Counted from the stretch's first letter, positions 1 through 21,792 are shown. The stretch is DNA of 35,458 bases from Trichoplax sp. H2 (GCA_003344405.1 NOWV01000015.1:868001-903458), one strand, 5' to 3'. Program-made: numbers and translations. Notes: generated by a model from the letters alone, not told the origin.

Positions 1-36
1 ATCGAATTGGCAATGACCTAGTCCATTTCGTTGTCA

Positions 37-159
37 TTAAACGTAAGTTAATTTAAGATGGTGTAATCTTTCTTGTTCCAATAGTCCATTGATGGAATCT
101 GCAACGATTGCATGATCATTGCTATCATTAACCGCCTGAGATATCCAATTAGTGTGGCC
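37..159 (-). pseudogene. Diverged tandem duplicate of the last ~40 codons of G1 (gene fragment)
   Basis: 37-159 aligns without gaps to 191-313 (offset 154). Minus-strand translation GHTNWISQAVNDSNDHAIVADSINGLLEQERLHHLKLTYV* vs G1 GNAYSISRAVDHRDSGAIVADFINEPLEQERLCHPKLTYVQV*. No start codon; not in frame with G1. Confidence 0.8.
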
Positions 160-184
160 TATACCCGGATAGACTGGTATTTAG

Positions 185-2092
185 TTATACTTGCACATAA
201 GTCAGTTTTGGATGGCATAATCTTTCTTGCTCCAGTGGTTCATTAATGAAATCTGCCACGATTGCACCAGAATCTCTATGATCAACAGCACGAGATATCG
301 AATAAGCATTGCCCTCATTAATTATCTTAAGTAAATCACTCGAGTAATAAGCAATAGCATCAAACTGATTCATTTTCCATATGCCGTTTGGTGCGGCAGA
401 GTTGTGCCTACATCGTTCCTGGAAAGGAATAGGTAAATAAAATGATTTTCTCCTTATGGATCTTTTTCTAACATTATCCAATAAATCGTCTGGTAATTGT
501 AATTTGATATCATAATGTAAAACTATTGATTCAAGGTCAACGATACGTGATATAACACCTTCTAATCCAGCTAATAAGGTATAATTGCAATAAGGACTAA
601 GTTGGATGATCTCATGTCGGATGAATAAGCTTCGTTTTAGAATCTCTTTAATCGCTGGATGGATTATTTTGCAATCAATTATGTACAATTTAAAGAAACT
701 ATCACGGCTGCTGTTGTAATATTGATTTAGTCGATGGATAAAGTTGGTAAATAACAAATTAAAAGTCGGACCATAATGTCGATGGTCAAGCATTAAGACT
801 ATATTAACATTAGTTGTTGGATCCCATTGTAGATCACTCAATTGACATAATGTTTGTAAATGCGAAGAGTAAAATAAGTACTCAGAGACTCGCCAAATTC
901 GTTGATTTACTTTCGATTGGATGACTAAGTCAACCAAGTAACGTTTCCCTCTTTGTTGATCAATTTTTTCTTCTATCCCGACAATTTTGAGCAACTTATA
1001 TTGATGCTCTGCTTCATGTTGATTCAATTTATACATAAACTGATTGGCAATTTGATGAGCTAATCCTGGATCGAGTAATCGATTACAATGAATAATATGG
1101 TCGCCATATTGAGTCATGACAGTAAATTTTCCATAAATGCTGTACGGCACTTTAAGTAGAAATTGCATTAGTTGACGATATCGACCGCGAAATCTTTTGC
1201 TAGCGATGACATAGCTAGGATTGCCATAAGTTGACGCAGGTAATGCACCAGTAAGAAAATGTCGTGGCAAAAATGGCAAGGTATGATATCGACTTGAATA
1301 GTTGGCAGGATCGTTATTGCTTGCAAAATCAATCGATTTCTGCTTAGCTGGTTCTTGTTTCTGTGGTAAATATTTCGAGGAAGATTTATCTATCGTAGAC
1401 GGTAAAAGGTAATTGTTTGGATCTGGCATAGAGATAGAATTTCCCTGGATAGGTAGGTAACTACTCTCAGTTTTATTACGAAATTGATATTTCCAACGGA
1501 GTTGAATTAATCCTTCAGGTGCAATCATGGTATATAAGACTTGAATATAATATTTACCAGGTGCAGTTAGCTTCATTTTTTGAGATTCTATCGATGGATA
1601 ATGATTAATAGAGTGTTTTTCCTGTTGCTTAGCTGATTCTTTCGATTGATCATGGTATAGAATTCTAGCTGCATTGGAAGGATTTTTGTTTGTGCTAATC
1701 CATAATTCTGCTTTGCCATCGGTTGTCAGTGAAAAAGTATAATCACTAGTCACAGGTGGATGAATAAATCCAATAATCTTCTGACCATAGCTAGTTCCCA
1801 CCCCTTGCCATTGAAATTGTTGGATAGAGAAACAAGTGGTAGGATGTAATGGAAAAGAATGTAATTGACGTAAATCGCTGATATTATTAACGCAATTACT
1901 ATTAAATTCATAATTCCATTGGTGAACACACAAATGGCCTATGCTAGCTCCGGTCAAGTTTCTCCGCTTACATTGGATGCCTACGATGTATTTTAGAATG
2001 GATTTGGATGGATTTTGACGAAAATAGATGAGAACTGTGTTGAGAATCGATATAACAATGGCAATAAATACACAGAGTCCAAGAAATTTCAT
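185..2092 (-). CDS. G1: B4GALNT3/4-like type II membrane protein (TM + PA14 + degenerate GT-A domain), probably catalytically inactive
   Basis: 635-aa ORF with N-terminal hydrophobic anchor, PA14 signature YGQKIIGFIHPP..YTF...AELWIS, and IEEKID..RGKRY block shared with paralogs. DLH replaced by DIK; WGGED and the C-terminal His cluster are absent. Confidence 0.88.
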   Translation of the reverse strand: MKFLGLCVFIAIVISILNTVLIYFRQNPSKSILKYIVGIQCKRRNLTGASIGHLCVHQWNYEFNSNCVNNISDLRQLHSFPLHPTTCFSIQQFQWQGVGTSYGQKIIGFIHPPVTSDYTFSLTTDGKAELWISTNKNPSNAARILYHDQSKESAKQQEKHSINHYPSIESQKMKLTAPGKYYIQVLYTMIAPEGLIQLRWKYQFRNKTESSYLPIQGNSISMPDPNNYLLPSTIDKSSSKYLPQKQEPAKQKSIDFASNNDPANYSSRYHTLPFLPRHFLTGALPASTYGNPSYVIASKRFRGRYRQLMQFLLKVPYSIYGKFTVMTQYGDHIIHCNRLLDPGLAHQIANQFMYKLNQHEAEHQYKLLKIVGIEEKIDQQRGKRYLVDLVIQSKVNQRIWRVSEYLFYSSHLQTLCQLSDLQWDPTTNVNIVLMLDHRHYGPTFNLLFTNFIHRLNQYYNSSRDSFFKLYIIDCKIIHPAIKEILKRSLFIRHEIIQLSPYCNYTLLAGLEGVISRIVDLESIVLHYDIKLQLPDDLLDNVRKRSIRRKSFYLPIPFQERCRHNSAAPNGIWKMNQFDAIAYYSSDLLKIINEGNAYSISRAVDHRDSGAIVADFINEPLEQERLCHPKLTYVQV

Positions 2093-5000
2093 GATTTGGC
2101 CATTTAAGGATCACTGATCAGAATATCTAATCTGATTATTCCGGATAGTGTTTCATATCCACTTTTAATAGGAAATTCAGAAAGATTGTTTTAATTGTAT
2201 TAGTTAGTAATTCCAGTTGAGTTATGTGTCTTTGTGATCTTAGTTGGGCTCTTTAGGGGATATTTGTCCAATTCTGCTACATAGATTTTATAAGGCTACA
2301 ACATCAATCCTAGAAGATGATTTTTAGAAACTATCATTAAATCGTATTAAGAGATATACTTTATTAACATTTTACTGTAGGAATAACCCTTCAAGCCATT
2401 GTTCTCCCCTTAAATGTTCAAAGGGGTTATGGTAACAGCAAAAGCGGAATTGAAAGTTATTTTTTTAGACTATTTCGTTCGCTTCTTCCGTTGGCGCATC
2501 TGCATTAAATCACCAAGTACTGCCTTAAATAAAGGAGAAAGAATATGGCTACCTGTATACTACTGTATCATCACAATCTAATTTTAAGCATGTACAGTAT
2601 ATAAAAAAGTGCATCGAATATTCCTAATTGTATGTTGCGTAGACCATAAATAAGGTTAAAACTGGACATGTACGAGTATACTCGAAATGTGTCGCGATTT
2701 GCCTTTAAAATGTCTATTGATCATTAATGTCACTGAAAGTAGACATAAAGTAGACATGAGAATTATATCTATCGACAAAAAGTAATTTTTTAGCTAGACT
2801 CGTGGCTTAACTGCGTTAAATATGCAGCACATGCATTAATAGTTTAATCGAAAATCGAAATTGCCATTTCTAATTTAATGTAGCATTGACGATTAGCAAA
2901 TGTTTCACTGCTGCAAGAGAAACAACTCTCATTCACTCTTAAAAAGTCGACGAAAAGAAGCTATCTTTAGCCTCTTTGCTTAACTTAGCCTTACTTTACC
3001 AGCCATGAACCCCTTATGGAGACATAATATCTACTGCGGGTAGTGTCTTCGCAGCATCATTTCAAGCACGTATAGGTTGAAAATAGCGTATCTAACATTC
3101 CTAAATGATCTATGCATCGATCGTAAGCTTAAATTCGTACATTTCTATTAAATAGTCTAAGGGATGAGTGACGTTATTTTAAAATCGGTGGAAAGTACCG
3201 TACTGCAATTAACCTATTGAATTAATTTTATTTAGCTTCTCTAGGCCTTCTAAAATTGACGACTTCGACACTATTTAGGATTTAGGTCCATCAATAATAA
3301 TAAAATATAAGCTAATTTGATGCAAGTATATATAGAAAAATCACGTTTATCATTTCTAAATCTTCTATTGTAAGGAATGTAAGCAAGTTTGAGGATGGAC
3401 ATGCTACTAAGGGATTAGAATGGATATCCATTCTCACAAGTAAAAATATTGGATAGAATTATTGAAGCATAAATGTTAGGGCGGCCTTGAGAGCTCTCTT
3501 TAAATCGAATTACAGTTTTTAAACATTCCTCCTTCATAGGGTTCATTTAGCTTTGTTGAATCGATTTCAGCATAAATAGAGCAATAATGTAAAATCATTT
3601 CTAATAATATCATTGCCAGCTAATTTCATGCATCAATCCTAAATCACATGTTGCACTTAGCGTAAACAAGATTAAAATTAATTTCTTGGAAATGGATATT
3701 TGTGTTGACGAGAAAAAAATTAAGCGGGACCATGTTAATGGAGAAATAGACTAGAGAGTTATTGAAATCGCTTGAGATTCTAATAGTAGCTTGTTCTTTA
3801 GTATTGGTAGTGATATTTCGAGGTAAGATTTACGTCTACCGTACCGTAACTGTATGAAATGGATTATCCATTCGATTTAACATGAACTAGAGCTATATCA
3901 GCTATTTTCCCTGTATTTTAGCAATATGAAATGTATCCATGGATAGAGTTATGACATATGGGAATGAAAGCTATAATTTATTGCAGGTACTAATAGTCAT
4001 TAATTGGTAATTAGAGTATAATATAGACCATTAATCTGAAAACAATATAGTTCAAGGAAAGGCCTCTGACATAAAAATGGCAATGTTTTTAATTTACCAT
4101 TAGTTTTAAAAGAAAATGATCAAAAATTTCACGGTGCATAAAATTCAGTTTAGCTTTAGATTTTACCTGATTGAAACTATGGTAGCAGTTATCCTACTGA
4201 TGGACCAAAAGAAATTTTGATTTTTCTTGCAATTAACACTGGCTTGGAAGAACTTTGTGACAAACTGGAAAGAAAGGGAGTCAACTGGAATCGATAGGTG
4301 TTTTGATTCCGTTTCTGGATTCTACAGTCCTTTCCATCCTTACTATTAAACAATTTTAAACTAGTTTACCAAGCTGTCTTGTCAATTTTACCATAATAAT
4401 AGCTGGATTGCATGATAAGAATGTCAGTAACATGCTTCGACTGCCTCTTACTTTATGAATAACAATTGATAGCTTGGAGCAACATTTTCGCTCTATTGTG
4501 ACTTTCATCTTCAACACTATACCAACGTCAATCAATTAATGGCGGTACGGCATATTAATTTTAACTGAGAAAAAATTGCTTCTGTTTTTCAATTTATCGT
4601 CAATACTTAATTTATCCTATCCACTTGTGCAGTAATGCTCTTCTAGCAAGCAGTATCGTCTTGAGGAAGGATGAGCAGTCGCCATTACCAGCCCTAATAG
4701 ATTAATTTAATAATTTCGACATTGTACATTACCAATTATCGTGATTTAGATACCTTCATTTGAGCTACATTATATTGTTCTCTGAATAATGAGAATAATT
4801 CATGGCTAAAAGGTAAAAAATGACGCAACAAGTTACCTTTCTTCTTCTTATGCTCTACCTTTTCAGCTACTGCCATATTGTTGGCATGACTAGCATTCTG
4901 TATAGAATATGGACATGTTGAACGAAATAATCTGTTTGTTAAAGGACAACGGAAATCAATTTAAGACTATCCTTAATAACAAATAAACTAGCTAGTGATT

Positions 5001-8000
5001 GATTGCTAGTAGAATCATCATAATATGTTATCGCATGCTAATGATGTTATTTTGTGATGATAATGCAATTTTACATTTTTACTCGATATTGGGCCATAGC
5101 AAGTGATAATTGAGCCGAAATAACAACAACATCAAAGGTTTGAATTATGGCCATTCTCATTCTTGACTTGGTGAAGCAGAATCAACAGTTATATCTTTCC
5201 ATAATAATTATAATGCTGGTTTTTACTGCAGGTTTTACTTGATATCGGATTGTAGTAAGTGATCGATTAAGCAGAAATGGGCAATAAGTATGAATGAAAA
5301 CATTGATTGATGGTTCGTAAATATTCGTAACTGATCAAATAAAGTAATCGGTTGCTAATAGAAATCATCATAATATTATTACGTTAATTAAATCCTTCCA
5401 TGATGATCTGGTAGTTGTTCATTTTTTGCCTGATACTGGGCTATGAAAAATAATTAGATGAATTGAGATAATAATAAACTATATTGAGAATAACAATCTA
5501 TCGTAGTTTATTCGTAGTTTTATGAAACTGAATGATTAGTTATGAATAGGGATCGCGATAATACTCGTATTTTCCAACACTAATCATACCATTTGGTTGT
5601 AATAGCGTTATTCCAGATTTTCATTTGTTATTGAATTACGATTTGTTTCGTATGGAATGAATTGAATAAAAATGGCAATAAACAATAATAGGAGTACCAG
5701 TTCATCGTATTTATTAGCTGCTCAGTGAAGTGGATTAAAAACAGATTGACATCTATAGCATGCGAATCAACCTACGAAGTAGCATATTCCAGAAGCGTAT
5801 TCGTTGCCTACTAATGCAATTACAGTTTTAAGTAAAATAAGTTCAGAACGGTTAATAAAGTTTCTGAAAATTATAGAAAGTAAATTTGTTTTGTTATCAG
5901 TAGAATGGAATTGGCAGGAGAACGTTAGCAGCAATAATAAAATAATTTAATTACAACTACTTGCGGATACTTGCAGATACACTCATCTCGTGTACATCGC
6001 ATTAGTCAGTTATTGATGAGATTCTATACATATACGTATAGATGATGGTATTAGCGCCTTAATAATTATTATAATTAATTCATTCATTAATTACTTTCTT
6101 CAAAAGTCCAAAGTCCAGAATTTTCACGCTTTGATGTTATAATGCGAAGCATGAATAAATGCTATTAATGAAAGTCATCATTTACTATACGCATAGAATA
6201 CAGATACACTTAACTACCAGATAGTACAGGTAAACAATCCAAATAGTATTGGCAAAATAATTACAGTTGCTTGATGCTTTATAATGTTAGCCTACGTATA
6301 TTAATTATCAAAAGTCTGATGAATCATTCGCACGGAAAGATGTGCAGGTTCAGTTAGTAATAAATAAATGATTTGGGCTATTGCCTTGACTCACATACTG
6401 TAGTAGGTATATCATGAGATCAGCAGAAGCTATATGAATCTTTCGAAAAAATTCTGTTTAAACTAAGTAATAATAGTTAGTAGTTCTCAAATACAATCAC
6501 TATATACGTTTGCCATTTGCAATAAATTTCAATAGTGCGATTGTAGTATGTGACTATATCAGACAGATAATTATAGTGAGAGTATACTGTAATATTGTTA
6601 AGTTACTGCAAATTCTTAGTGTATGGTGTGATATACAATTCTATTTGCAGCTTTGAAATACCTATGTGGTAATAAATGACCGGTAGAATATACGGGAATT
6701 TTATCAGATAATTGTATCTAATTAACTAACGGTAAATAATATTTCTCAAGTAGTTTATCTACCAGGGCTATACTAACATTCAACGTTTTAATTAATTACA
6801 GTCTTCTTCTCTTGCAGATCTACTAACGTTCTTGGATCTGACCAAGTTAACTACATTAACGATGGTCTTTCATAGCCAGTTAGAAAGTAAGGTGTAGATC
6901 GAAAGTATTTATGGGCCATAAAGTGTAACGTCAATATAGGACGTTTAATGGACTGATTTCTGTTACAATAACGCCTGACATTCCAAATTTCCAGCTTTAA
7001 ATTAGATTAGGTTTTATTGCTGGTAAGATAAGGCGCTAACACAGGATAAATTTTTCATATGTTACACTGCCACGAATACAGTTACACAAGCATAAATAAA
7101 TCAACAAAAATTTTCAACTTGCAATGTCAATAACCAATTACTAGTTTTCAAAACATATCTTTTTTGATACACTGATCAGCAGATTAATTAAATAAGACAA
7201 AATAAATTTTTAATACTGAAATAGGCACTGCATTTATCAGTCTGCCAAATATTCGAAAACTATTTCATCATTAATTGGGGAGTTGGTTATACTTTTCAGT
7301 CTGATGTTCTGAATCCATTGTAGGCTAAATTATAATTCATAAGAATATTGCTATAACCATCTTTTCTGTTCCGCTACAGTTGCTAGCCGTCATTATTAAG
7401 ATCAATTAAGCATTTTAGCATTTTTTTAATTTAAAGAGATTGTACTATATTGGTATTTATAAGGTTTGTACGAATATGGAACAATCAGTCATTCAGATTT
7501 GAGTCGTGTCTTGATATAATTGATATATATTGAAATTTTAAACTACAAAAATGAATATTTTAAGAGTGTTAGTGTGCTATAGGTATAAGATAATTTTGAT
7601 GATAAATCGATGCTGTGAAAAAATTGTAAGTTTAACAAAGTCTATGCTCCCGATTAAAGGAAACAAATCAAAAAATTTGCTAAAAGAACTGAACCAACCG
7701 CCTAGGATGATATCACTGGTGTTATCATTAATATAACCAATGTCATTCCGATCTGATCAATTTAATAATAAGCTATTCTGATAAATTCATAGAGTAGTCA
7801 AGAAAATGTTACAGTGACTCTTATGCTTTATCATGAACAAAATGAGAAGTAAAAAAATTGTGAATTGTAGACGAATAGCGGTTGAATACAGTATTAATAA
7901 AAATATTTACAATGATGTCGTAGAAAATGGAATGAAAAGCTATGATGAGGAAATGACCAATACGTATGTAGACGATACAACCAATTTACACTTTCATCCA

Positions 8001-8019
8001 TATGAGAATTATATGTTTT

Positions 8020-10014
8020 TTAATTTTTCCAATTCAATTTACGATGAAAGAAATGGAACATCCCAGGGTGGCAAAGCCTCTCAATTTCCATTTGATGTTT
8101 TAGTATTCTATCAGCCATTTCAGAATCTTCGCCACCCCATTTAAATTTAAATTTTTCAACTTCCATACCACCAAGAGCATCATAATCACCTTTATAATAG
8201 GCCATAATACCGAATCCATCTCTTTCGTAGAATCCGTTAGGATTGGATAAATTATGCCCACAATATAATCGAACAATAATGGGCATGTAAACACTTCTTT
8301 TTCGAATACATCGTTTGCGAATATTATCTAATAAATCATGAGGGAAATTAATATGTAAATCATACTGTAATACTATACTTTCGGGATCATCGATACTGCG
8401 TATAGCAGTATCCATACCGATCGTTTTAGAGAAATTTTGATAATCTTTATACATAGGTATGACTTTATAATTTTGTAAAGGGCTAGCTTTCAATTCTTTT
8501 AATACATCCAAATTTTCATTAGAATCACGGCCAAAATCAGCAATAATGACACTAAAATGTTTATCGCCAGTTTGGAGGTAGAAATTACTTAATTCTTTGA
8601 TAAAATAACGCACCCAACGTGATTGGCCTTTAACAGCCAAGCAAATATGAACATGGGTAATAGGATTCCAGACCACATCACTGATTAAGCAAAGAATTTG
8701 TGAAACTTTACGATGATAAAAGTACTCGGAGATGCGTTGAATTTTTTGGTTGGTATTATCTTTGACTACCAAATCGAATAAGAGTCGGCTACCGCGACGA
8801 GGATCGACTTTCTCTTCAACGCCAACATTTTCTATTAAGGTATATTGGTTGCGATACTTATCATTTAAAGCTGTCATAAATCGTGCAACAAGTGAATTGG
8901 TGCGTTTTGCACTGGCGATACGATTACATGATCGTAAGCGGTCACGATCAAATATTTTATAATCGAATTTACCTTGGACCATGTGTGCAATTTCTTGTAA
9001 TTTATTGACAGCACCATAAGTGCGTAATCTGGTTTTCTTCGTGACAATGTAAGTGGGTCGAAAGTAGCGACATGTCGGTAAAACAATGAGATTACGATGA
9101 GCTATTTTAGGTATAACATGATAGTTACGACTAAAGTTGCTTTCTGGCTTACGAAATACTTTACTAATGCCAATACCTGGTTTGACAAATCGTTGGACCA
9201 TATGACTAGGTGAATGATATTTCGGTGAACGAGGAAAGAGAGATAAGTAATCTGTATGAATGGCTTGAGGCAAAGATTGAAAACGACCATTAAAATATTT
9301 CCACCTTACTTCAACATATCCCTTGGCTAAGCGTTGACCATGTAATACTTCAACAAAATAAGGCCGATTAGCGTATAAATAAAACCAGCCCGATAATTGT
9401 GTCTCAACCCATTGCCATCTTTTCTCAGGGAATTCGACATCCCACGGTCTTTGCCATGGCTCTACCCAAGCGATCCTTTTGGCTTTGCTTGGTTGAGTAC
9501 CATTACTGAGCCATAACTCGGCAAAACTATTGGTAGTTAAGACAAAGGCATAATAACCATCTTTAGGAGGATGAATATAACCAAATATTCGTTGACCATA
9601 AATTTCAAGATCATAGAAATAGCGAAATTGACTTATAGCATGGCAAACTGAGGGTCGATTGGGGAAATATTTCAATTCACGTAAATCATCGACATCTTCT
9701 ATACAATCGGTAAAATTCTCCCACCGATATAAGCATAATTTCCCTCGGCCACGAGTTTTATCATTAGGATCGATATTACAAGGGCAACCATTTACGTTGT
9801 TGATGTTGTGATTATTGGTATTCTTCTGATAATTATTGTTATCGTTATTGATTTGGTTAATTTCCATTGTAAGATCATGAATCGTTTCAGATTGTATACT
9901 AGATCGTGACGTTGAGAAAAATGGTTTACGCTGATAGATTAATAAAATAGCGAAATCGATCACAGCAGCAAGTTGTAATAATAAAATAAATTTAATCACC
10001 GTACGTTTCATCAT
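8020..10014 (-). CDS. G2: beta-1,4-N-acetylgalactosaminyltransferase 3/4-like (TM + Asn-rich stem + PA14 + GT-A), motifs intact
   Basis: 664-aa ORF with TM anchor, PA14 YGQRIFGYIHPP..YYAF...AELWLS, and ADFG, FSKTIG, YDLHINFP, GFGIMAYYKGD, WGGED (8125-8139), FHFFH. Matches the vertebrate B4GALNT3/4 motif pattern as I recall it. Confidence 0.93.
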   Translation of the reverse strand: MMKRTVIKFILLLQLAAVIDFAILLIYQRKPFFSTSRSSIQSETIHDLTMEINQINNDNNNYQKNTNNHNINNVNGCPCNIDPNDKTRGRGKLCLYRWENFTDCIEDVDDLRELKYFPNRPSVCHAISQFRYFYDLEIYGQRIFGYIHPPKDGYYAFVLTTNSFAELWLSNGTQPSKAKRIAWVEPWQRPWDVEFPEKRWQWVETQLSGWFYLYANRPYFVEVLHGQRLAKGYVEVRWKYFNGRFQSLPQAIHTDYLSLFPRSPKYHSPSHMVQRFVKPGIGISKVFRKPESNFSRNYHVIPKIAHRNLIVLPTCRYFRPTYIVTKKTRLRTYGAVNKLQEIAHMVQGKFDYKIFDRDRLRSCNRIASAKRTNSLVARFMTALNDKYRNQYTLIENVGVEEKVDPRRGSRLLFDLVVKDNTNQKIQRISEYFYHRKVSQILCLISDVVWNPITHVHICLAVKGQSRWVRYFIKELSNFYLQTGDKHFSVIIADFGRDSNENLDVLKELKASPLQNYKVIPMYKDYQNFSKTIGMDTAIRSIDDPESIVLQYDLHINFPHDLLDNIRKRCIRKRSVYMPIIVRLYCGHNLSNPNGFYERDGFGIMAYYKGDYDALGGMEVEKFKFKWGGEDSEMADRILKHQMEIERLCHPGMFHFFHRKLNWKN

Positions 10015-11446
10015 GTCGAATTAAAAGGGTAAGGATTGTAGATTGATTTACTAGTTATTTCTTCGATAGTTTATCTTGGAGATGTTTTATTGGTTGGAAA
10101 TTCTAACCATCGATCAGAACAGTCGATCTCCCCTGCACATCTAACGCTACTTAGCCACAATCAATTGGAATGGACGCTAACCAATTGAAATCGATGGTCC
10201 TTGCTCAATTCGATAACTAGTGGTATTCCCTATCGAAATGCGATCAATCACTGGAATGGAGGGAATAACGATGATGGCTACTGACTCAATCAACTCGAAC
10301 CGACAAGATGATTTCAACATGAGAGTAAATCGTCGTCGCTATGGAAAAGTTGCATGATTCTCATTGCAATGGATGTTATTTCTACTTGATCGAGGGTTTA
10401 CTGCAATAGCGATTGCCGTTAAAATTGGATTTATTAAACTGTTAATCAAGCAGAAATTCTAAATGGCTTACATGATCTAGATGGTACGCATTGATTTACC
10501 ATCGCCATCTTGATCTATTCTATACTGTTGTATGATACATTATGCCAACCAAGCGTCTATCCCCTCTACTTCAACGAATCAACTCCAGCCAGTTGATTAA
10601 CAACAAGATAATCAACAGTAATTGCTGATGCCAACTCGATCATCGACTATAGCAATTGTGACAGTTTAATCGCGTTTTAATAGTGATCAATTTCAACAGC
10701 TAGCGATGAAAGAGGCTTCTATATAATTTAACAAATGATTCAATCGATTGATATCAGCCACAGCCATAGACTAACGACGAGAGGATGCCATGATCGCCAC
10801 TGATCGACGACGATTATTGAAGTTGTAGTAAGGTACTGTCCCGTTCACGATCTCTTTGGACTATAGATGCTAGACGAAGAACGGCTTAGTGATTGGCACT
10901 CCAGCCTCCGCCTATTGATGGTATCCATAATGATTGATTGACTCATTCTTCCTCAGAAAATGGCATTATAGTGTAGATAGTAGTCATGCGGAAACATGCC
11001 TCGGGTTAGGCTAGAAATGGAGATACCTTGATCAGAGATTTGCTTTGATAGGGATAATGGCTGCAATACAACGCTATAGGTGGTCGACTGGACTAGTCGT
11101 CGTCTCTCTTCATCAAAGCTAGTATAGTAATGCATAGTGGTGAAAGCCATGTTTTCGTATTATGGCTACGATTTGTATCGATTGTTCAACAATAGCAAGG
11201 TTCCAAAAACTTCTTCTCCAATTAATTAGCAATTATCCAAAGTCAATAAAGACTTCCCTCTTTCTTGAAGATGACAATCTTCACCTATAGATGATAGAAA
11301 TCAGTATTCGACCACCATGCAATCCACCCATTACAATGCTATATTAGAATACAAGAGTCATTCACTGCTGCAAGATGGCGTCAACGCCAGGTCAAGCACA
11401 TCCCGATGTAGTGGCCACACTTTTGTCTTGCGATCTATACCATAAT

Positions 11447-12534
11447 GGACCTCTCCAAATTTCTACTTTAAATTTCCAGTAGTCTATGTTCCTGTAGTCT
11501 ACTTTAAATTTTCAATAGTCTATTGTAGAATAAACACATCTTCACTAGACGCTAAGGACCACTTCAAATTTCTACTTTAAATTTTCAGTAGTCTATGTTC
11601 CTGTAGAATAGACACATCTTCACTAGACGTTATGAACCACTCCAAATTTCTACTTTAAATTTTCAGTAGTCCATGTTCGAGTAGAATAGACGCATCTTCA
11701 CTAGACGCTATGAACCACTCCAAATTTCTACTTTAAATTTTCAATAGTCTATTGTAGAATAAAAACATCTTCACTAGACGCTAAGGACCACTTCAAATTT
11801 CTACTTTAAATTTCCAGTAGTCTATGTTCCTGTAGAATAGACACATCTTCACTACACGCTATGAACCACTCCAAATTTCTGCTTTAAATTTTCAGTAGTC
11901 CATGTTCCTGTAGAATAGACACATCTTCACTAGACGCTATGAACCACTCCAAATTTCTACTTTAAATTTTCAGTAGTCCATGTTCCTGTAGAATAGACGC
12001 ATCTTCACTAGACGCTATGAACCACTCCAAATTTCTACTTTAAATTTTCAATAGTCTATTGTAGAATAAAGACATCTTCACTAGACGCTATGGACCACTC
12101 CAAATTTCTACTTTAAATTTCCAGTAGTCTATGTTCCTGTAGAATAGACACATCTTCACTACACGCTATGAACCACTCCAAATTTCTACTTTAAATTTTC
12201 AATAGTCTATTGTAGAATAAACACATCTTCACTACACGTTATGAACCACTCCAAATTTCTACTTTAAATTTCCAGTAGTCTATTGTAGAATAAACACATC
12301 TTCACTACACGCTATGGACCACTCCAAATTTCTACTTTAAATTTTCAATAGTCTATTGTAGAATAAACACATCTTCACTACACGCTATGAATCACTCCAA
12401 ATTTCTACTTTAAATTTCCAGCAGTCTATTGTAGAATAAACACATCTTCACTAGACGCTAAGGACCGCTTCAAATTTCTACTTTAAATTTCCAGTAGTCT
12501 ATGTTCCTGTAGAATAGACACATCTTCACCAGAC
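11447..12534. repeat. Minisatellite, ~14-15 head-to-tail copies of 78-bp and 73-bp unit variants
   Basis: Long unit ~GAACCACTCCAAATTTCTACTTTAAATTTTCAGTAGTCTATGTTCCTGTAGAATAGACACATCTTCACTAGACGCTAT; short unit lacks GTTCC. Unit starts: 11447 (compound), 11556, 11634, 11712, 11785, 11863, 11941, 12019, 12092, 12170, 12243, 12316, 12389, 12462. Confidence 0.97.
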
Positions 12535-15500
12535 ATGGATGCTCGTCCGATATTAAGCATATCTTCATATGAATGACGATATTGAGTGGCTGTTATTTCT
12601 GCCAAATTACCCGTGTAAATGAATAGGTAATCAATTTCGAGGAAGCTCGGACAACATTATAATCTATCTTGCAGCCTAAGTAAACTTTTGGATAGATACG
12701 ATGGTGGATGAGCTAGAAATGGTTCTTATCATTGACGACTAAGTAAATTACTAGCATAAATGAATGGATAAAAAATCTTCAGTAAGCTGTAAATGCCATA
12801 AAATCGCAATTGACTGTATCTGGTGACTGAGTTGTTTTTGGAGGGATGGGAAAATGAATAAAGTAAGAATGAATAGTATTGTATTAAAAAAATGTGAACG
12901 CAAATTTCATACCATTGCTATGAAATTGAAGTCTTCACTTTTTTAAATACAAAACTACTCATTCTCCCTTTTTAATTAAACAGCCGCGATAGTTGATAGA
13001 CCAGAAATGGTTCAATCTATCTGACAGCTTGAATCATTTTTAGATAGCAACGGTAGTCAATGGACTAGAAATAGTTAAAGCAAACTAGGTCAAGCTGGAG
13101 ATTTCTGTAGGAATAACTCACATGATAGAAAGTTACGGGCGATTGAACTCTCGGCCCATCAAGTCTAATCAGCATCAATAGTGCTGCCATTTTATGCAAT
13201 ACGATAGGCCTAAAGAGAAGTCTGCGGAAGATTTCACGGCGAATGTATTGATAAAATAGAATATACAAAAATAGGATCCAAAGAACTTTAAAACAACCCC
13301 AATTGCTATGTAGAAGACTTACTGGGCGCATATAACTCTGATATTAGCGTATATTAAATTAGAGTACAGAAATATTTTTACAACACGCTATGCCTTATTC
13401 AGGCATTTGATTGATCCTAGTTCATGCCAAGACGGATATCTCTTCGCTGTTGACCATATGCTTTGTGTATTTGTTAAAATGTTCGCTGTGTTACTCTTAT
13501 CCGATGGATTGCAAGTTCCAATGTCCAATTAAATATGGCTGATTCCGTAAAAATGCTGTTGGAATTCATGATTGGAATAAATAAACTAAAACAAATAAAT
13601 AAGTGCGTAAATAATGATATCATAGGCCACAAGAGTAAAACATCAGTTGCCAACATGCCATGTTACAGTGCTGCATATCAATATCAACATAGATTATAAT
13701 TTGCTAATTTACATTTTATGCTCGTAGGTAAGGTCAAGTCAAACAATATCTATAAGGCACATGGACATGATGATACAAGAATCCTTAGTTAAATCTCCCA
13801 TTCTGTGTGCAACTTTCACATTGCTGCCTATCTCGACCTATTTAATTTCAAGTCTTTAAACAAACTGCAATCGCAATCTGAAGATTGAAACCTATTTCAG
13901 TTTCATACATGATATAAACTACCAATTTTGCAACGCTTACTAATTGAATTATAATTACCAACCAATTCAGGTCGACCTGTGAATCATGATATTGTTAAGA
14001 TTCAATCCTTGAGCATGGATGGATACAACATGATGTAGGTCGTTATTTATTATTAAAGGTAAATTATGCACGCCGTCTATGATGGTAAACATCAATTCAA
14101 GGTCGTAATATTCTCAAATGCAGCTTAATATATTTCAAAATTTAAGTTTCACTAACTATTTCAAAAGGCGCATTTGCAATGATATTTCATTGTAGTCCAA
14201 CCCCAAATTAGCTTAAGATTACAAATAATTTATGTAATAATAAAATGAAGCTTACAAGAAACTGTACTTCTTGTTTTATTATTATTATAAAGATAGCTTA
14301 TCACATTCAGTTCACGAAAATCATATCACAGGCTCTGCTAGTAAACTGTATTATGCTGGCAATCATATTGCTAAATGGTCATCTTTTTCAGCAATGAGAA
14401 ATGCCTCAAGTAGAAATGTTTACGATACTGTCATCCAACAACATACGTAAATAAGATATTGTTATAGCTGTGCTACCTTCAATGCACCTACGAGAATATT
14501 TACTAACAGTTTTAATCCATGAGCCTAGTGACGACGCACGATTGGATGTATAGGAAATGACCAACTAATTATAATTTAACAAAGATATTCAATTAATAGA
14601 GATTTATCTTAGGTATGATGAATCATGGCTGAATTGTATTATACTACTAATCCTATCATCAAGCCTATTTCAGAATTAGGGATGTGCTAAATAATAAATA
14701 GAGCAAGTCTCTTCACTGAAATACTTACGACAATGTCATCCAACTCCATGAACTAATACCCTATGGCTCTACCTGCGTCATTCTTAACGTACCTAAATTT
14801 ACTTGCTTGTGACCAACCTTTTATTGTATCTTAACCATATTATTGCAACGAAATTTTAGCTAATGTAGACTTTAGAATTATACTATAGTATTCGGTCGTT
14901 GAAACTAAATTATTTGGTGATTGATAGAGCGAATTTCGCCTCTTTAATTCAGCAACAGGCGTTCTTCGTAAGCATTGGCGTCTGTAGACTACTTTGTCAC
15001 TAATGGTGTGTGATAGTAATTATATCATCAAGCCTTTTTTCACCATTACCGTATGCATATTTACTAAACGAGTTCTTTTAATAAAAATAGTCACAACAGT
15101 ATCATGCAACATATATGAACACAGTACATTGCCATACTTGTGTAACTCTTAATGAACGCATCTAAAATTACTCATTTATAAATAATTTTAATAGGAATAA
15201 GTTATACACTACTCTTATGTGTTACCTGAGCTCCATCAGTTTAGAAATAATAGTCAAGAAGGCTAGCTAATACGTGCATGAATTCAACAGCAATGTGGTT
15301 TAGCTCTTAACCATCGTATTATTATAAATTATGCTGTATAACACTATACAACAAGATTATATACGGTCTTCTTCACCATTTTTACTTCTATACTCTTACC
15401 GTAGAAATTCTTAATAATTCAGGATATCGTGTAATAAGTTCTACATATTCCGCGATTAGAATTACATATATAGTATTTCAAACCAAGGAGATACAATAGA

Positions 15501-15957
15501 CAGCTGGTTAAGTCAAGAAAAGTAACTTAGATTCTAACCTAATGACTAAATTGATTAAAAATCGATCTAACGATATAAAAGCTGCAAGGCTGAAGCTGAG
15601 CAAATGAATGCTGGAGATTCCAGTACATCTAGATTTCGATAGATTGCGGCTATAATATATTAAGTTATCTTTTTGCAGCTGTAATAAGCAAGCAACAGCG
15701 TGAAATAGAGCAATAATTAATTATTGACAGAAATTATAAATTTGGGATGCATATAGTTATGCCTATGATGCCTACATTAGATATTTACAGCAAGTCAAAA
15801 TCATGTATTAGGTAACAAATAGCTCTCTTAGTGAACTTAATTTTAAGGTAAAAATTTTCAAATTGAACACCCACTATACGTAGAACAATGATAGGCAGAT
15901 CTTAGGAAAGCATTAGGATGCCTTTCAATGCTGATAGTGTGGTTCACTGTCATATTG

Positions 15958-17853
15958 CTAATCATGACGATATTGTCGAAATAGTAATGGGTAGCTAGTC
16001 CTTTCGATGTCTAATTCATTTTCTATCAACTTTCTAAGTAGCATAGCAAAAGCTTTTACAGGCTTGTCTTGATGAATAATCCCTTGATAATCACTGATAT
16101 AACAAGAAAGGACATTATAATAATCACGATCAACGTATCCATCCGGTCTTTGGAAGTTGAATCCGCAGTTTAAATTAATAACCAATGGCGCAAAACATTG
16201 TCTACCTTCTATCGTCTTTTTCCGAATCTCTTGCATCAACTGGCTTGAAAAATGGACAGCAGGATCAAAATAGAATAGGATACTATTCGTCAGATTAATA
16301 GGCTGTTGAAGAACCTGTTTTAACGGAGAAATAATATCACTTGACTGGGCAGTATCGTCGATCCAGAAATATTTTTTCTTTAGTCTACTTTTCTGTAATT
16401 TCGCTTTAATCTTAGGAGTACTTGTAAACCCCTTGTCTATAATCGTAAGTGTGAAGTGATCGCTATCTAGGCTTTGGGCATACCATTTCTCGATTTCCAG
16501 GACTGCTCGCAGTACAAGTGAATACTTGTGATCATGATTAATCATCATGATCATATTCACAGGTGCAGTGTTGGACCATTGAAAGTCGGCGTCATAACAC
16601 CACTGATGATTGGTTTTATTTTTGTAAAAGTACTCCGACAACTGGTAATGTTGGCTACCTTGGGCAACTTTTAGTTCGATAAAATATCGACTTCCTGCGG
16701 ATGGATCTAGCTTCTCTTCAACGCGAATAGTCTGTAACAATGTTAGTGGTTTGCCTATCTGGTTATAATAACTCTGATATCTTGTAAAGATGTCTTGAAC
16801 AACACTTTTAGCAGCTCCTTGAGCTAGAGCAGGAATTAATTCAATCTTTCCACGTACAGGAGAAATATAGCTGCGAAATTCATCACCAAATACACGATAT
16901 GCTACCGCCATAACTTGTTGAAAGCGATTTCGAGTTGTCAATAAATAATTAGGAAGGCGATTATGACAGTATTGTAAGCTACTAGAATGAATGATATCAT
17001 CCGATATTACGAATCGTTGGAGATGATAAAATTGAACGATTCGATTAAGTTGGTAATTAATTTGGTAAGGTAGATGAAATGATTTCCAATCAATTTTCCA
17101 CCCTTCAACGTGATGGCTAGCTTGTTTCTGAGCTACCGAATTGGCTATATCATCTTCTTGCAATAATGATATATGACGATGACTGATTACGCCTAAATTT
17201 TTCTCAATTTTTCCATCATAATATTTCCATTTGACTGCTAAAAATGATTTTGTATTACCAGTCACTTGTAAAAGCTCTATCCAATACTGACGACCTTTTT
17301 CCATATAAATCCATGGGCTTTTTGTTGGTAATTTAATCCTCAAGTTCATCCTTTGCGAACCTAGAAAAGTATGAGCAATACGAAATATATTCCGACTGGT
17401 ATTATCTCGACTTAACCATAACTCGCAGCTGGATTTACTGACAAGTTCAAATGTGTATAAAGCGTTGAATGGTGGATGAATAAAACCTACTATTCGGTTA
17501 CCAACGTTAACTGGCGACTGATCAACTTGTAGTCTGTCTACTGACCGACAATGTAAAGGTTGGAAAGGAAATGTCTTTGCTTCCTTCAAATCATCGATAT
17601 GCTCTAGGCATCGATTGTGATTAATCCATTGGTATAAGCATAATTTACCGTCGAAATCTTTAGGTGTTTGTCCCTTGCAATGGCACGAAATTGAGCCTAT
17701 CTTGGACTTTATCCTTAGTGCGCCTAAGTTGGTCTGATTGAAATTATTAATCAATAACTGCATAGGCCGGCGGGTATCACTTCCAAAATCAAAGTAAAAA
17801 ATAACGATAAATATAATGACAATCAGTTGTAAAAATATAAATTCCACCTTCAT
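15958..17853 (-). CDS. G3: B4GALNT3/4-like type II membrane protein (TM + PA14 + degenerate GT-A domain), probably catalytically inactive
   Basis: 631-aa ORF with TM anchor, PA14 GNRIVGFIHPP..YTF...CELWLS, and VEEKLDPSAGSRY block. DLH replaced by DPA; WGGED region missing (~6 aa shorter than G2); His cluster lost. Confidence 0.88.
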   Translation of the reverse strand: MKVEFIFLQLIVIIFIVIFYFDFGSDTRRPMQLLINNFNQTNLGALRIKSKIGSISCHCKGQTPKDFDGKLCLYQWINHNRCLEHIDDLKEAKTFPFQPLHCRSVDRLQVDQSPVNVGNRIVGFIHPPFNALYTFELVSKSSCELWLSRDNTSRNIFRIAHTFLGSQRMNLRIKLPTKSPWIYMEKGRQYWIELLQVTGNTKSFLAVKWKYYDGKIEKNLGVISHRHISLLQEDDIANSVAQKQASHHVEGWKIDWKSFHLPYQINYQLNRIVQFYHLQRFVISDDIIHSSSLQYCHNRLPNYLLTTRNRFQQVMAVAYRVFGDEFRSYISPVRGKIELIPALAQGAAKSVVQDIFTRYQSYYNQIGKPLTLLQTIRVEEKLDPSAGSRYFIELKVAQGSQHYQLSEYFYKNKTNHQWCYDADFQWSNTAPVNMIMMINHDHKYSLVLRAVLEIEKWYAQSLDSDHFTLTIIDKGFTSTPKIKAKLQKSRLKKKYFWIDDTAQSSDIISPLKQVLQQPINLTNSILFYFDPAVHFSSQLMQEIRKKTIEGRQCFAPLVINLNCGFNFQRPDGYVDRDYYNVLSCYISDYQGIIHQDKPVKAFAMLLRKLIENELDIERTSYPLLFRQYRHD

Positions 17854-19818
17854 TATACTGTAGCTTGATATAGATTTTTATAGTATTGGAAGAAAATATG
17901 GTATAATGCATTCCAAGCAATTGGTAATTCTAAAGCCACAAATTTTCACTGTCATCGAAATAATTTCATGAGGAAATAATGATGAAAGTACTAATAATCC
18001 ATTCGGTTATTACTTAGGTAGTTTTTAGGGTAGAGTCGTGAGAACATTAGCGATTGACCAAATTGAATTAAAACCGCATAAATACGGGTAGCAAGACTGA
18101 AATTAATCAAAGATAAATGGCTTTCTTTTAAAACTAGCCGACAAAAGAGCAAGCGATATTGCAAGTATTATAATTAATTTGCTAAAAAAATTTTAAAAGT
18201 TTCTGTCATTCACCAGATCGAATTCGAATCACGTAGATTGTAAAGTTGAAATAAATTTAATGGTAAAATAGTTCCATCTAAATTCGTAGATTTTGCCTGG
18301 ACTATGCTAGCTTAACCGACTAAAAAGTGTTAAAAAAGTTCGCTAAATATTAGTAATGCAAAAGGTTGAATTCAAACTATATCGATGGCAGAGTTAAAAT
18401 AAAGAAAAAGTCCGCAAGTTTTCATTTACATCTACTCTGTCTATCTTAGCAGAAATGGAAGACGCTACGTTTTTTATGGCTAACCGATATAGAAAATTCA
18501 CTACGTGATCACGATTGTCAGCAATATAGTCTTTATTCAGCAAAAATCTAAAACAGAGATTTTCCAAGTGTTCAATGCGTGATTAATAGGGTCAACATCT
18601 GTTGCCTTTATTGACATACAAGCACTTGTTCATAGAATAGAATCGCGTTCTTTTTATAGTTTATTACAGACCACTAGGTTATAGTATTGATTAGGAAAAC
18701 AGAAAAATTTCCACACTCCATAGCAAAAAAAACAGTATAAATTAAAGTCAGATCTAATATCAAGAGTTAATAAGGCTTGTGCTATTCCATCATCACGATT
18801 TTATTAGGGTTTTTTTCGAATGTTGAAATACGCTTATCGCAGCATTTCATCAGAATAGTTATATGATCATACACCGTATACATTGGTGCAGAGAAATTAC
18901 AGATACGATAGATTACCTTGATAATTTTACCAATGGTTTAAATCAATTTGAAAGTAAAAATCTTATAGATTAGCAGTATCAAGGTTCAATCCGCACTTAG
19001 TTACGTCAATTTTGCCATATCTGGAGTTCGTCCATGTCTTGGCAATTGTGTATTATAGAAATTACATTTACTTTTAAATCGATTTAACAGTATATTCTTG
19101 AACAATATCGCACATGCTATCGACAGTTATACTGTGTTCACAATCTTTGAAATCAATTTAGAAGTAAGGTCATATATAACAATATTATCAACATTCAATA
19201 AGATCTTTACACATTAACTCGTCAAATTATTATAGCATTTATCAATATATACTCGTACTTATATTTTCCTTACAAAAAATAACCTCGTAAATACGGCAGA
19301 GAAATCTTACTTTATTCATTTTATAAACCGGATATAGTATAGTTTTTTAATCAGTTAGAGTTCTTTGAAATAAAAATCTTCCTGTAGTAGCAATTTATTA
19401 TAGATAATCGCAGGTAAACTCTATATTCCACGAAATAGACCACACATCGTATCACTTTTTTGAGGGTTCAGATTTCAGAATCACTTACAATATAATCTTC
19501 CTGGACAGCATTAACAAGGCTCAATAAGCTACCTACATACTGCTATGTGCATCAAGGGATATTAATTTGTTATAATCAGACAATTAAAGGTAAACCTTAT
19601 ATCCCATGAAATAGGAAAGTAGGTGGAAATAGTTTATGAAATTGACTTTACCGAAAAATTATTTCTCCTCTCCAAAATGAAAAGACCAGATCATTTGCGA
19701 TAAGTTACATAGACATCTATATCGAAAGTAAAATTGAGATGGATTAGGAAAAATAAATTGAGCAAACCGATATACACAATAAATCCATGGAATATCTTGC
19801 CACAATTTCCTTATATGA

Positions 19819-21792
19819 TCAAATATGAAATAAGAGAGCAACATTAGCAACAAAATCGTCTACGGTACCTTTCTTCCATGGTAATCGTCGATGAAAATGA
19901 TGATATAATTTGGGATGGCAAACGCGCTCAATATCGTAATGATGATAAAGTAATTGATTAAGGAATGCAGAATCTTCACCACCCCATCGATAACGAAACT
20001 GTGATGCATTATAACCGCCAATACGCAGAAAATCCTCTCGATAAAGTGCCATAATACCAAATCCATACTCTTCCCATTCCCCATTTGGATCATTCGGTGA
20101 TGCATTACAGTGTAAGCGTAGCAAAATGGGCATATAGACAGTTTTACCGGGAAAGCAACGCTTACGAACATTGTCAATTAGATCAAGAGGTAAATTTAAG
20201 TGTAAATCATAAGCTACAATAATGCTGCGACGATTATTAATGGCTTGAACGCCAGCATTGATACCAGCACTTCGACTAAATCGTTTATGTTTACGTCCTA
20301 ATTGGACTAACTGAATTTTCTTAAATGAGCTGCTACGCAATAAGGCTGGAATGTCGATGTCGGTACTGCCGAAATCAACCAAGACAACACTAAAATATTC
20401 ATCATGGCTGGTTTGATAGTATTGATTAACTTGATGAAGAAAATATTGAACCCAGTAACCCTGCTGCTGAATCGCTAAAATAATGCTAACACGAATCTGT
20501 TGATTCCATTCAAGTTGATTAATTCGACATAATTGCTTAGATTCCTTGTTTCGATAGAAATAGTCTGCAATTCGCCAAATTGCCTTACTCTTAGAATGTT
20601 GGATTAACATTTCTATAAAGTAACGATTACTTGCTCTAGAATCAATTTTCTCCTCTACATTAATAATTTCAACAATAGAGTAGGTACGATTTAATTTAGA
20701 CCTCAAGTTGGTCATATAATCTGTAATAATGGATAGCGCTAATGGACGACTAAACGGCGAATTACAAGCTACAGCTTTATCGTCATTATAGTATACAAAA
20801 TCGTTTCGACCATAAAACCGATGATTACGCATTAAATACACGAATGTTGGACCTTGTAAATCTACCATTGGTTTAGTAATTCTTTGTATGTTTGTTGGTG
20901 TAGAATAAGGACAATCGGGTAAAATTTGTCTTCGAATTTCAACATCTAGTAATGACTTTAAGGATAGCAAGGATTGGTTATTAACGGTAACATGATGTTT
21001 AACAATATTTAGTTTCTTAACTTGGCTACCAAGTCGGACTATTCGCTTTGGTTGATGGCTATTGGACTTGTAACTACATTGACGTGGTAAGGATAAAAAA
21101 GAACTGTTAATTACCTGAAATGATGTTTGATTTCGACCATCAAAGTATCGCCACTGGATAATTACATTTCCTTTAACTTTAGCCTGTGTATGAAGAATTT
21201 CTATAAAATAATCTTCTTCCCTTTTTAAGGCTACTATATTACTTGATTGATCATCAATTTGCCAACGACTTTTAGTGACAATATGTTTAAGATGAGAAGG
21301 ATTATGATCAGTGCTTAGCCATAATTCAGCAATGCCAGTTGTATAAACGCGAAACTGATAGTACGCCGTTTTAGGTGGCCTTAGTAGGCCAAAAGCGCGT
21401 TCACCATATAGTTCTAATGGGTAAGACCATTGAGTTTGATTAACCCATGTATGCAATGTTGGATGATTCGGAAATGATGAAATTTCTTTTAAATCATCAA
21501 TTTCATGGATACAATCATGCAGATCTTCCCAGCGGTATAAGTAAAGTTTACCATGCTTAGTCATCGATGGATGACTAATGCAATAGTCCGATTGTGCAAT
21601 GGGTGGATGATGAACTAATTTAAGTTTCCATAATCCTTCAAAGTTAGGCTTGAAGCAATCATTTAAATGGAAGTGAATTAATTTATAACTATAGATCATA
21701 ATAAGTAAGAATAAGATTAATGCCATGATGACTAATTGACGATTTAACGCATTAGCCATGATGATAGAAATCACATGTGCTTCCTGCTTCAT
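19819..21792 (-). CDS. G4: beta-1,4-N-acetylgalactosaminyltransferase 3/4-like, motifs intact
   Basis: The ORF track start at 21804 is GTG; first in-frame ATG is 21792 (alternative 21759). TM anchor, PA14 YGERAFGLLRPP, and VDFGS, FSRSAG, YDLHLNLP, WEEYGFG, WGGED, YHHFH. Confidence 0.9.
   Translation of the reverse strand: MKQEAHVISIIMANALNRQLVIMALILFLLIMIYSYKLIHFHLNDCFKPNFEGLWKLKLVHHPPIAQSDYCISHPSMTKHGKLYLYRWEDLHDCIHEIDDLKEISSFPNHPTLHTWVNQTQWSYPLELYGERAFGLLRPPKTAYYQFRVYTTGIAELWLSTDHNPSHLKHIVTKSRWQIDDQSSNIVALKREEDYFIEILHTQAKVKGNVIIQWRYFDGRNQTSFQVINSSFLSLPRQCSYKSNSHQPKRIVRLGSQVKKLNIVKHHVTVNNQSLLSLKSLLDVEIRRQILPDCPYSTPTNIQRITKPMVDLQGPTFVYLMRNHRFYGRNDFVYYNDDKAVACNSPFSRPLALSIITDYMTNLRSKLNRTYSIVEIINVEEKIDSRASNRYFIEMLIQHSKSKAIWRIADYFYRNKESKQLCRINQLEWNQQIRVSIILAIQQQGYWVQYFLHQVNQYYQTSHDEYFSVVLVDFGSTDIDIPALLRSSSFKKIQLVQLGRKHKRFSRSAGINAGVQAINNRRSIIVAYDLHLNLPLDLIDNVRKRCFPGKTVYMPILLRLHCNASPNDPNGEWEEYGFGIMALYREDFLRIGGYNASQFRYRWGGEDSAFLNQLLYHHYDIERVCHPKLYHHFHRRLPWKKGTVDDFVANVALLFHI

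Follow-up and report, generated by a model that had tools for sequence, protein, structure and literature searches.

The 35,458-nucleotide (nt) stretch of Trichoplax sp. H2 analysed in the present study (GCA_003344405.1, NOWV01000015.1:868001-903458; hereafter the window, with positions counted from its first letter) is AT-rich placozoan DNA with a G+C content of ~29-39%. It carries a tandem array of B4GALNT3/4-like genes, the products of which combine a transmembrane (TM) anchor, a PA14 domain, a cystatin-like middle domain and a GT-A domain of glycosyltransferase family 7 (GT7). Six full-length paralogs, each a single open reading frame (ORF) of 631-664 codons, are located in the window. The first-pass annotation of positions 185 to 21,792 had listed four minus-strand single-ORF genes, and all four were found in their places, with products of 635 (G1), 664 (G2), 631 (G3) and 657 (G4) amino acids (aa). 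The full-length genes are as follows.

185-2092, minus strand: G1, a B4GALNT3/4-like paralog of 635 aa, catalytically degenerate (ORF, Pfam, motif alignment, RNA contigs, AlphaFold2 (AF2) model).
8020-10014, minus strand: G2, 664 aa, with intact motifs DLH, FSK, WGGED and HFFH (ORF, Pfam, alignment, RNA contigs).
15958-17853, minus strand: G3, 631 aa, the most divergent paralog, catalytically degenerate (ORF, Pfam, alignment, RNA contigs, AF2 model).
19819-21792, minus strand: genomic ORF of G4, 657 aa (ORF).
19869-21792, minus strand: main coding exon of G4, with intact motifs (ORF, Pfam, alignment, joints in RNA run X15).
19652-19716, minus strand: small exon of G4, followed by a further exon ending at 19542 (X15 joints).
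23625-25580, plus strand: G5, 651 aa, with intact motifs, not counted in the first-pass annotation (ORF, Pfam, alignment).
26953-28941, minus strand: G6, 662 aa, with intact motifs, closest to the outgroup forms (ORF, Pfam, alignment).

A further family member of Trichoplax sp. H2, P0003 (625 aa), is likewise degenerate and is referred to below as G0. The ortholog of P0003 in Trichoplax adhaerens carries the locus tag directly preceding the one of the G1 ortholog, and, partly on the basis of these locus tags, P0003 is taken to lie next to G1, past the edge of the window. G1 and G3 themselves cluster with T. adhaerens proteins in exact look-ups.

The catalytic motifs divide these seven genes into two groups. 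In the six-way alignment, G2, G4, G5 and G6 carry YDLH, FSK or FSR (FIK in G5), WGGED and a C-terminal HxxH. G1 has YDIK in place of DLH, YTLLAG in place of FS[KR] and VDHRDS in place of WGGED, and it ends at ...KLTYVQV before the His pair; G3 has FDPA for DLH, SDIISP for FS[KR], a deletion and PVKAF at WGGED, and FRQYR for HxxH. This alignment bore out the first-pass statement that DLH (now DIK and DPA), FS[KR], WGGED and the C-terminal His cluster are missing from G1 and G3. G0 shows YDNLH with an inserted residue, LQGED, and GSSKAS for DFGSTD, and its His pair is absent. The His of the DxH motif, which is K in G1 and A in G3, is present in 24/24 non-array homologs, as are the W, G, E and D at the WGGED columns; the Asp of DxH (D528 in G1, D530 in G3) is invariant across all 38-39 aligned sequences. 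When the top matches, cluster members and the window's own copies, all with a catalytic-domain match, were combined into a set of 76 proteins, both D[LVIMT]H and WGxED were missing only from G0, G1, G3, their T. adhaerens orthologs and one 74-aa fragment; WGxED is absent from four truncated entries in this set.

The profile searches gave the same division. Pfam Glyco_transf_7C (PF02709) matched all four motif-intact copies (G2, G4, G5, G6) and none of the three degenerate ones (G0, G1, G3). CHGN (PF05679, cut-off 23 bits) matched all six genes of the window, with 31.2 bits for G1 and 26.1 bits for G3 vs 60-98 bits for the others. PA14 (cut-off 24 bits) was above its cut-off in G1 (33 bits) and G6 and weaker in G2 and G3, the latter scoring 18 bits, below the cut-off. 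As the first-pass annotation had described, G1 and G3 keep their ~630-aa frames, PA14 and the EEKxD..RY block, conserved Cys (in three invariant columns) and the N-terminal hydrophobic helix, which spans residues 2-25 and 2-24, respectively, in the structural models.

Two homologs outside the array deserve mention for their motifs. P0055 (657 aa), a non-placozoan protein, has DLT for DLH and keeps WGGED and the C-terminal His pair; it may be a case, from another lineage of animals, in which the metal site was partly lost on a separate occasion. P0016 (858 aa) is a full PA14 plus CHGN homolog with intact motifs, which its source attributes to the unicellular holozoan Pigoraptor; if this attribution is true, the PA14-GT7 architecture is older than animals.

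The nature of the lost residues could be specified by comparison with human CHSY3, to the GT7 domain of which, as seen in two solved complexes, residues 455-657 of G2 were aligned. In this alignment, the DLH of G2 falls on DVD of CHSY3, FSK on FSR, WGGED on WGLED and HFFH on HIFH. With CHSY3 residue numbers counted along the alignment and the offset set from the DVD motif, DLH corresponds to D718/D720, FSK to R697, the E-D of WGGED to E806/D807, and HFFH to H831/H834. According to a published structural study, precisely D718/D720, R697, E806/D807 and H831/H834 are the donor-binding residues of the CHSY3 GT7 domain, and they are conserved in CHSY1/3 and not in CHPF/CHPF2; in the same study, only CHSY1/3 are described as active, CHPF/CHPF2 acting as stabilisers of the complex, and the middle domains of CHSY3 and CHPF are described as connected by strand swapping (PMC12748766). 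Since the mapped residues are those that CHPF has lost, G1 and G3 have lost what CHPF lost, namely the residues by which this family holds UDP-sugar and metal, and the CHPF analogy raised in the first-pass annotation is apt with respect to the identity of the residues; G1 also keeps a middle domain of the partner-contacting type. Judging from these residues, G1 and G3 would be incapable of glycosyl transfer.

The AF2 models of G1 and G3, built with 38-39 family sequences, had a mean predicted local distance difference test (pLDDT) score of 81.0 and 77.7, respectively, and showed the same order of elements: a TM helix, a PA14 sandwich, a helix-plus-sheet middle domain and a GT-A domain. The middle domain of G1 (342-418) consists of a helix at 342-359 and strands at 365-418 and lies ahead of the GT-A domain, while the former WGGED loop (595-605) has pLDDT <50. 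The top Foldseek matches of the G1 model were four chains of two CHSY3-CHPF complexes (E-values of 2e-14 to 2e-13), followed by PA14 lectin domains. In VIA-align, residues 341-634 of the G1 model superposed on residues 418-731 of 9q8z_A, a chain of the CHSY3-CHPF complex, with Z 22.2 and a root-mean-square deviation (rmsd) of 15.1 over 241 aligned residues; residues 425-635 superposed on 9o4g_A (CHSY3) with Z 19.5 and rmsd 2.5 over 194 aligned residues, and residues 43-225 on PA14 lectin domains with Z 14.5-16.5 and rmsd 2.2-4.0. A complex prediction for G2 300-664 with G1 280-635, run with no alignments and no controls, gave a score of 0.04 and a mark of 0.34, which speaks neither for nor against binding.

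A retained lectin function of PA14 was considered for G1 and G3 and set aside. In human B4GALNT3, D189/D190, Q251, N252 and E254 of the PA14 domain hold Ca2+, and N252 is key to sulfated-glycan binding (PMC13018970). At the aligned DD position, G0 and G6 have DD, G1 has DG, G2 has NS, G3 has KS, and G4 and G5 have TG, so that G0 and G6 alone retain the Ca2+ DD motif. As DD has also been lost in the active copies G2, G4 and G5, the canonical Ca2+ site is not specifically preserved in the dead copies, and the lectin variant of the first-pass proposal for G1 and G3 receives no help from it.

Long-term selection on the degenerate genes was assessed from columns that are at least 90% identical in the 24 non-array homologs, 30 of them N-terminal (through the middle domain) and 40 in the catalytic domain. 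Of the N-terminal columns, 22 are kept in G0, 21 in G1 and 20 in G3, vs 21-25 in G2, G4, G5 and G6; in the catalytic domain, the corresponding numbers are 19, 14 and 12 vs 32-35 (Fisher test for N-terminal vs catalytic retention, p=0.007 for G1 and p=0.003 for G3). N-terminal retention is thus at the level of the active copies, and the loss of invariant residues is confined to the catalytic domain. The frames themselves are a second line of evidence. G1 and G3 have open frames of 635 and 631 codons, and their other frames are open over no more than 73 (G1) and 50 (G3) codons. Neutral point substitution was simulated from the catalytic-domain coding sequence of G2 with an AT-rich equilibrium, kappa 2 and no indels, which is conservative, and was stopped when the retention of invariant residues had fallen to the G1 or G3 level. 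None of the 2000 simulated frames stayed open at either level, the mean number of stops being 8.6-9.3 per 214 codons, which argues that the frames were kept by selection while the catalytic residues were replaced.

Transcription was followed in contigs of four public runs on positions 1-20000 of the window, namely X4 (DNA), X19 (declared RNA), and X15 and X16 (both labelled "RNA?"). X15 and X16 behave as RNA, with cover in discrete blocks as in X19, and X4 is even at a depth of ~32. RNA contigs cover G1 at 1-2761 (X15), 1-2311 (X16) and 426-2051 (X19), and G3 at 15682-17241 and 17263-17918 (X15) and at 15994-16394 and 16848-17582 (X19); G2 lies under RNA cover at 6946-10763. In a silent control region (4670-6670), the depth was 0-1.2 in X15, X16 and X19 vs 32-33 in X4. 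Another candidate control, 12674-14007, was rejected, since this stretch is empty in the RNA runs and X4 covers it hardly at all. Absence of transcription had been named in the first-pass annotation as evidence that would count against functional G1 and G3, and both genes proved to be covered. Upstream of G1, the contigs contain the joints 2308->4166 (X19 and X16) and 2499->4167 (X16), which are GT..AG on the minus strand (CT..AC on the plus strand), so the G1 mRNA is a spliced transcript of the minus strand that includes an upstream exon of its own. The G3 contigs have no splice joint, and their cover is hence strandless. For G4, the 3' introns 19717-19868 and 19543-19651 are GT..AG on the minus strand (X15 joints 19716->19869 and 19542->19652); the spliced product has 649 aa and a tail unlike that of the genomic ORF, the tail of which (...GTVDDFVANVALLFHI) is intron read-through.

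One additional transcript was seen in the same runs. An RNA contig of X15 at 6608-6955 on the plus strand has an 86-nt GT..AG plus-strand intron (6731-6816) and lies directly against the block of G2 transcript at its 3' end; it could represent either a short transcript of the plus strand or antisense RNA.

For recent selection, orthologs were available from T. adhaerens only, and these, at ~99% identity, are too close for a firm test of the ratio of nonsynonymous to synonymous substitution rates (dN/dS). The amino acid differences to the T. adhaerens models were 4/625 for G0, 3/~565 for G1 (after dropping 11 mismatches in the mis-modelled N-terminus of the T. adhaerens entry) and 6/631 for G3, and for fragments of G2, G5 and G6 they were 0/205, 0-1/216, 1/309 and 1/213. 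Among 40 of the 179 variable sites, the nonsynonymous and synonymous polymorphisms numbered 6:6 in G1, 3:9 in G2 and 1:1 in G3. The ratio of nonsynonymous to synonymous polymorphism per site (pN/pS) in G1 is ~0.26 on 12 sites, and finding no more than six nonsynonymous changes among 12 has a probability of 0.025 if the neutral nonsynonymous share is 0.79, and of 0.089 if it is 0.72. Recent constraint on G1 appears weak and relaxed relative to G2, and G3 could be close to neutral now.

A search beyond Trichoplax with a G1+G3 profile against 1.84 billion representative proteins returned G1, G3 and P0003 and, after these, generic members of the family together with bacterial multi-PA14 proteins, and scans of metagenome contigs found no relative of G1 or G3. 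This gap in orthologs of G1 and G3 could reflect either real absence or thin sampling. G6, on the other hand, has an ortholog-like relative from another record, P0189 (665 aa, 78% identical).

All seven array genes form one clade, with a starred support of 95 in a quick tree of 33 rows and 100/100 in a careful tree of 16 rows, and the array is therefore a placozoan-specific expansion. The trees place the degenerate genes differently: in the quick tree, G3 branches off first within the array and G1 joins G0 (97, starred), and the careful tree groups G0, G1 and G3 (84/98, not starred). G4 is sister to G5 (100/100). The first-pass annotation had proposed to distinguish one loss of catalysis from two by a tree; trees and approximately unbiased (AU) tests were run, and the tests reject neither a sister relationship of G1 and G3 (p=0.44) nor a position of G3 outside the six remaining genes (p=0.34). 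Long-branch attraction has to be reckoned with in the array trees. In G0, DxH still has its His and WGGED its G-E-D, where G1 and G3 have unrelated residues; whichever tree is correct, this pattern would fit motifs that eroded independently in each of the genes.

The reading that these observations favour to some degree is that G0, G1 and G3 are catalytically dead, secretory paralogs with a non-catalytic role within a placozoan-specific GT7 tandem array. G1 and G3 are probably lineage-specific pseudo-glycosyltransferases, and it is quite likely that selection kept the dead enzymes for most of their history. The array products would be GT7 beta-1,4-N-acetylgalactosaminyltransferase-like type II membrane proteins, among which G0, G1 and G3 would remain proteins of the secretory pathway with a non-catalytic action. 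Most likely they would act by attaching to an active paralog with the middle domain and GT-A shell that they have kept, much as CHSY is stabilised by CHPF; the formation of such heteromers, proposed from this analogy, is put forward tentatively as a mechanism and is rather doubtful. The next likeliest mode would be binding, competing for or presenting the glycoprotein acceptors of the paralogs, which would tune LacdiNAc-type glycosylation, and the absence of any present function would rank third. This reading does not tie any dead copy to the gene next to it in the array.

Several observations weigh against maintenance of these genes by selection, and they bear on the alternative that G1 and G3, as duplicates with relaxed constraint, are turning into pseudogenes, with promoters that still work and open frames that are a leftover serving no function today. 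Their terminal branches are the longest in the family (1.8 for G1 and 2.7 for G3 vs 0.6-0.8 in motif-intact copies). The pooled divergence of G0, G1 and G3 from T. adhaerens, 13/1821, is above the 2/943 of the G2, G5 and G6 fragments (Fisher p=0.11), and the changes in G3 are near a rough neutral expectation at a DNA divergence of ~0.5-0.6%. Only two of the listed variable sites fall in G3, the N:S ratios of G1 and G2 do not differ significantly (p=0.40), and neutrality of G1 is not rejected at the lower of the two neutral shares. Homolog searches with G1 and with the six-way alignment found no G1 ortholog beyond Trichoplax, yielding G1 only. The array is turning over and contains real debris in the form of truncated copies and fragments; the RNA evidence consists of contigs, giving no expression level and, for G3, no strand; and AF2 models built on a family alignment would appear folded even for a decaying copy. 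Such decay in progress is nonetheless unlikely. The simulation never left a frame open at the observed erosion of motifs, the non-catalytic invariants stand at 20-22/30 vs 21-25/30 in the active paralogs, no stop or frameshift occurs in 631-635 codons at 33% G+C while the other frames close within 73 codons, and three separate genes (G0, G1 and G3) are in the same state. Ordinary tandem-array pseudogenes share with G1 and G3 a dynamic array with truncated copies and fragments, and long branches; they differ from G1 and G3, which have full-length open frames, non-catalytic invariants at the level of active copies, RNA cover and, in G1, a spliced leader. This evidence speaks to the past and not to the last few hundred thousand years. 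The preference of the first-pass annotation for selection over decay is upheld by the open frames, retained invariants and transcription and is weakened by the slight recent constraint on G1 and the near-neutral estimate for G3.

The more specific proposal that G1 and G3 are obligate non-catalytic subunits of the adjacent enzymes, as G1-G2 and G3-G4 heterodimers of the CHPF/CHSY kind with genes paired accordingly, could draw on the match between the four lost donor-binding elements and those of CHPF, on the retained middle domain of G1, of the type mediating the strand-swapped contact in CHSY3-CHPF, and on the presence of both G1 and G2 under RNA contigs in the same runs. It is decidedly improbable. 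The alternation of active and pseudo-enzyme pairs that it envisages does not hold for the array as a whole, the order of which from G0 to G6 is D D A D A A A (D, degenerate; A, active), followed by two partial copies of intact type; a four-gene alternating run occurs in 15 of the 35 possible placements of three degenerate genes among seven. Moreover, G1 groups with G0 and G4 with G5, so that neither G1-G2 nor G3-G4 are closest relatives, the upstream exon and intron of G1 make it a separate transcript, and three degenerate and four intact genes cannot be matched one to one. That G1 and G3 might still be enzymes with altered chemistry (metal-independent transfer or a different donor, with substitute residues) is scarcely credible. 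In its favour are the confidently predicted GT-A shell, the invariant DxH Asp and the existence, in other families, of GT-A enzymes that do not depend on a metal; against this, all four donor-binding elements are gone, including the E-D of WGGED (E806/D807 of CHSY3) and both His of HxxH, the WGGED loop is deleted in G3 and of low confidence in G1, and the replacements in G0, G1 and G3 differ from one another, which resembles drift more than a new shared active site.

The catalytically dead reading has its closest known counterpart in CHPF/CHPF2, which, like G1 and G3, keep a GT7-type GT-A fold from which the DxD, R, E-D and HxxH donor-binding residues are gone, and, like G1, have a cystatin-like middle domain ahead of the GT7 domain; chains of the CHSY3-CHPF complex are also the best structural matches of the G1 model. 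The differences are that CHPF has an extra N-terminal GT31 domain and no PA14, and that it is ancient and conserved across animals, with a solved CHSY heterodimer that is needed for activity (PMC12748766), whereas G0, G1 and G3 are placozoan-specific, much younger and fast-evolving. The vertebrate LacdiNAc synthases B4GALNT3 and B4GALNT4, after which the Trichoplax proteins are named by their sources, share with the array the type II anchor, PA14 and the CHGN/GT7 catalytic domain, and members of this family have DLH, WGGED and HxxH. Both vertebrate enzymes are active, while G1 and G3 lack the catalytic motifs and also differ from human B4GALNT3 at the PA14 position of D189/D190 (DG in G1, KS in G3).

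Dead glycosyltransferase partners are already known, CHPF with CHSY being the example. Among the papers listed by literature searches there was no inactive paralog of the B4GALNT3/4 type and no publication joining B4GALNT and placozoan terms, and a search for the T. adhaerens locus tags or UniProt identifiers yielded no publication. As it stands, the array is a sequence-level case of a lineage-specific family with some dead but maintained members, which is a common outcome of tandem duplication. If G0, G1 and G3 regulate the active paralogs, it would be a compact natural system for the origin of pseudo-enzymes from tandem duplicates and for glycan tuning in an early-branching animal. A bolder version, in our opinion quite unlikely, is that placozoans independently re-invented the CHSY/CHPF division of labour within B4GALNT3/4-like GT7, G0, G1 and G3 being required stabilising or specificity subunits for the four active paralogs; if it were true, combinations of dead and active members would give distinct programmes of LacdiNAc-type glycosylation, in an animal whose cell types are very few.

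The remaining features of the array are its partial copies and the untranslated region (UTR) upstream of G1.

32874-34511, plus strand: truncated copy of G5 with the PA14 part missing (tblastn with the six proteins).
34820-35458, minus strand: G6-like copy running off the window end, with 90% aa and 94% nt identity to G6.
32040-32308, minus strand: G2-like N-terminal fragment, with 73% identity over aa 2-56 and 78% over aa 69-86 (tblastn).
40-159, minus strand: relic of the G1 3' end, 120 nt, with 60% identity to G1 aa 594-633 (tblastn).
2310-4166, minus strand: 5'UTR intron of G1 (alternative acceptor: 2500-4166), with the upstream non-coding exon from ~4167.

The 3' 1036 nt of the truncated G5 copy, including the 3'UTR, are 99% identical to G5 and its 5' 187 nt are 91% identical, which points to a very recent duplication or gene conversion; one source annotates this copy as a 304-aa product, P0183. 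The second G6-type gene at the window end means that the array continues past the window. The relic lies directly after the stop codon of G1, and its translation ends ...LTYV and then stops; since the relic already has this shortened end, the C-terminal truncation of G1 is older than the small duplication.

Between G2 and G3, a high-copy repeat is located at ~14190-15340, where the X4 depth reaches 1204 in the bin 14675-15341 vs ~32 elsewhere, and many loose contig ends of X4 occur at 14191-15013. X4 also joins 12782 to 15799, so that ~3 kb of the window are missing from that genome. Just downstream of G3, 190 nt at 15491-15682 are skipped both in the RNA-like run X15 and in the DNA run X4, and this skip is a genome indel difference and not an intron.

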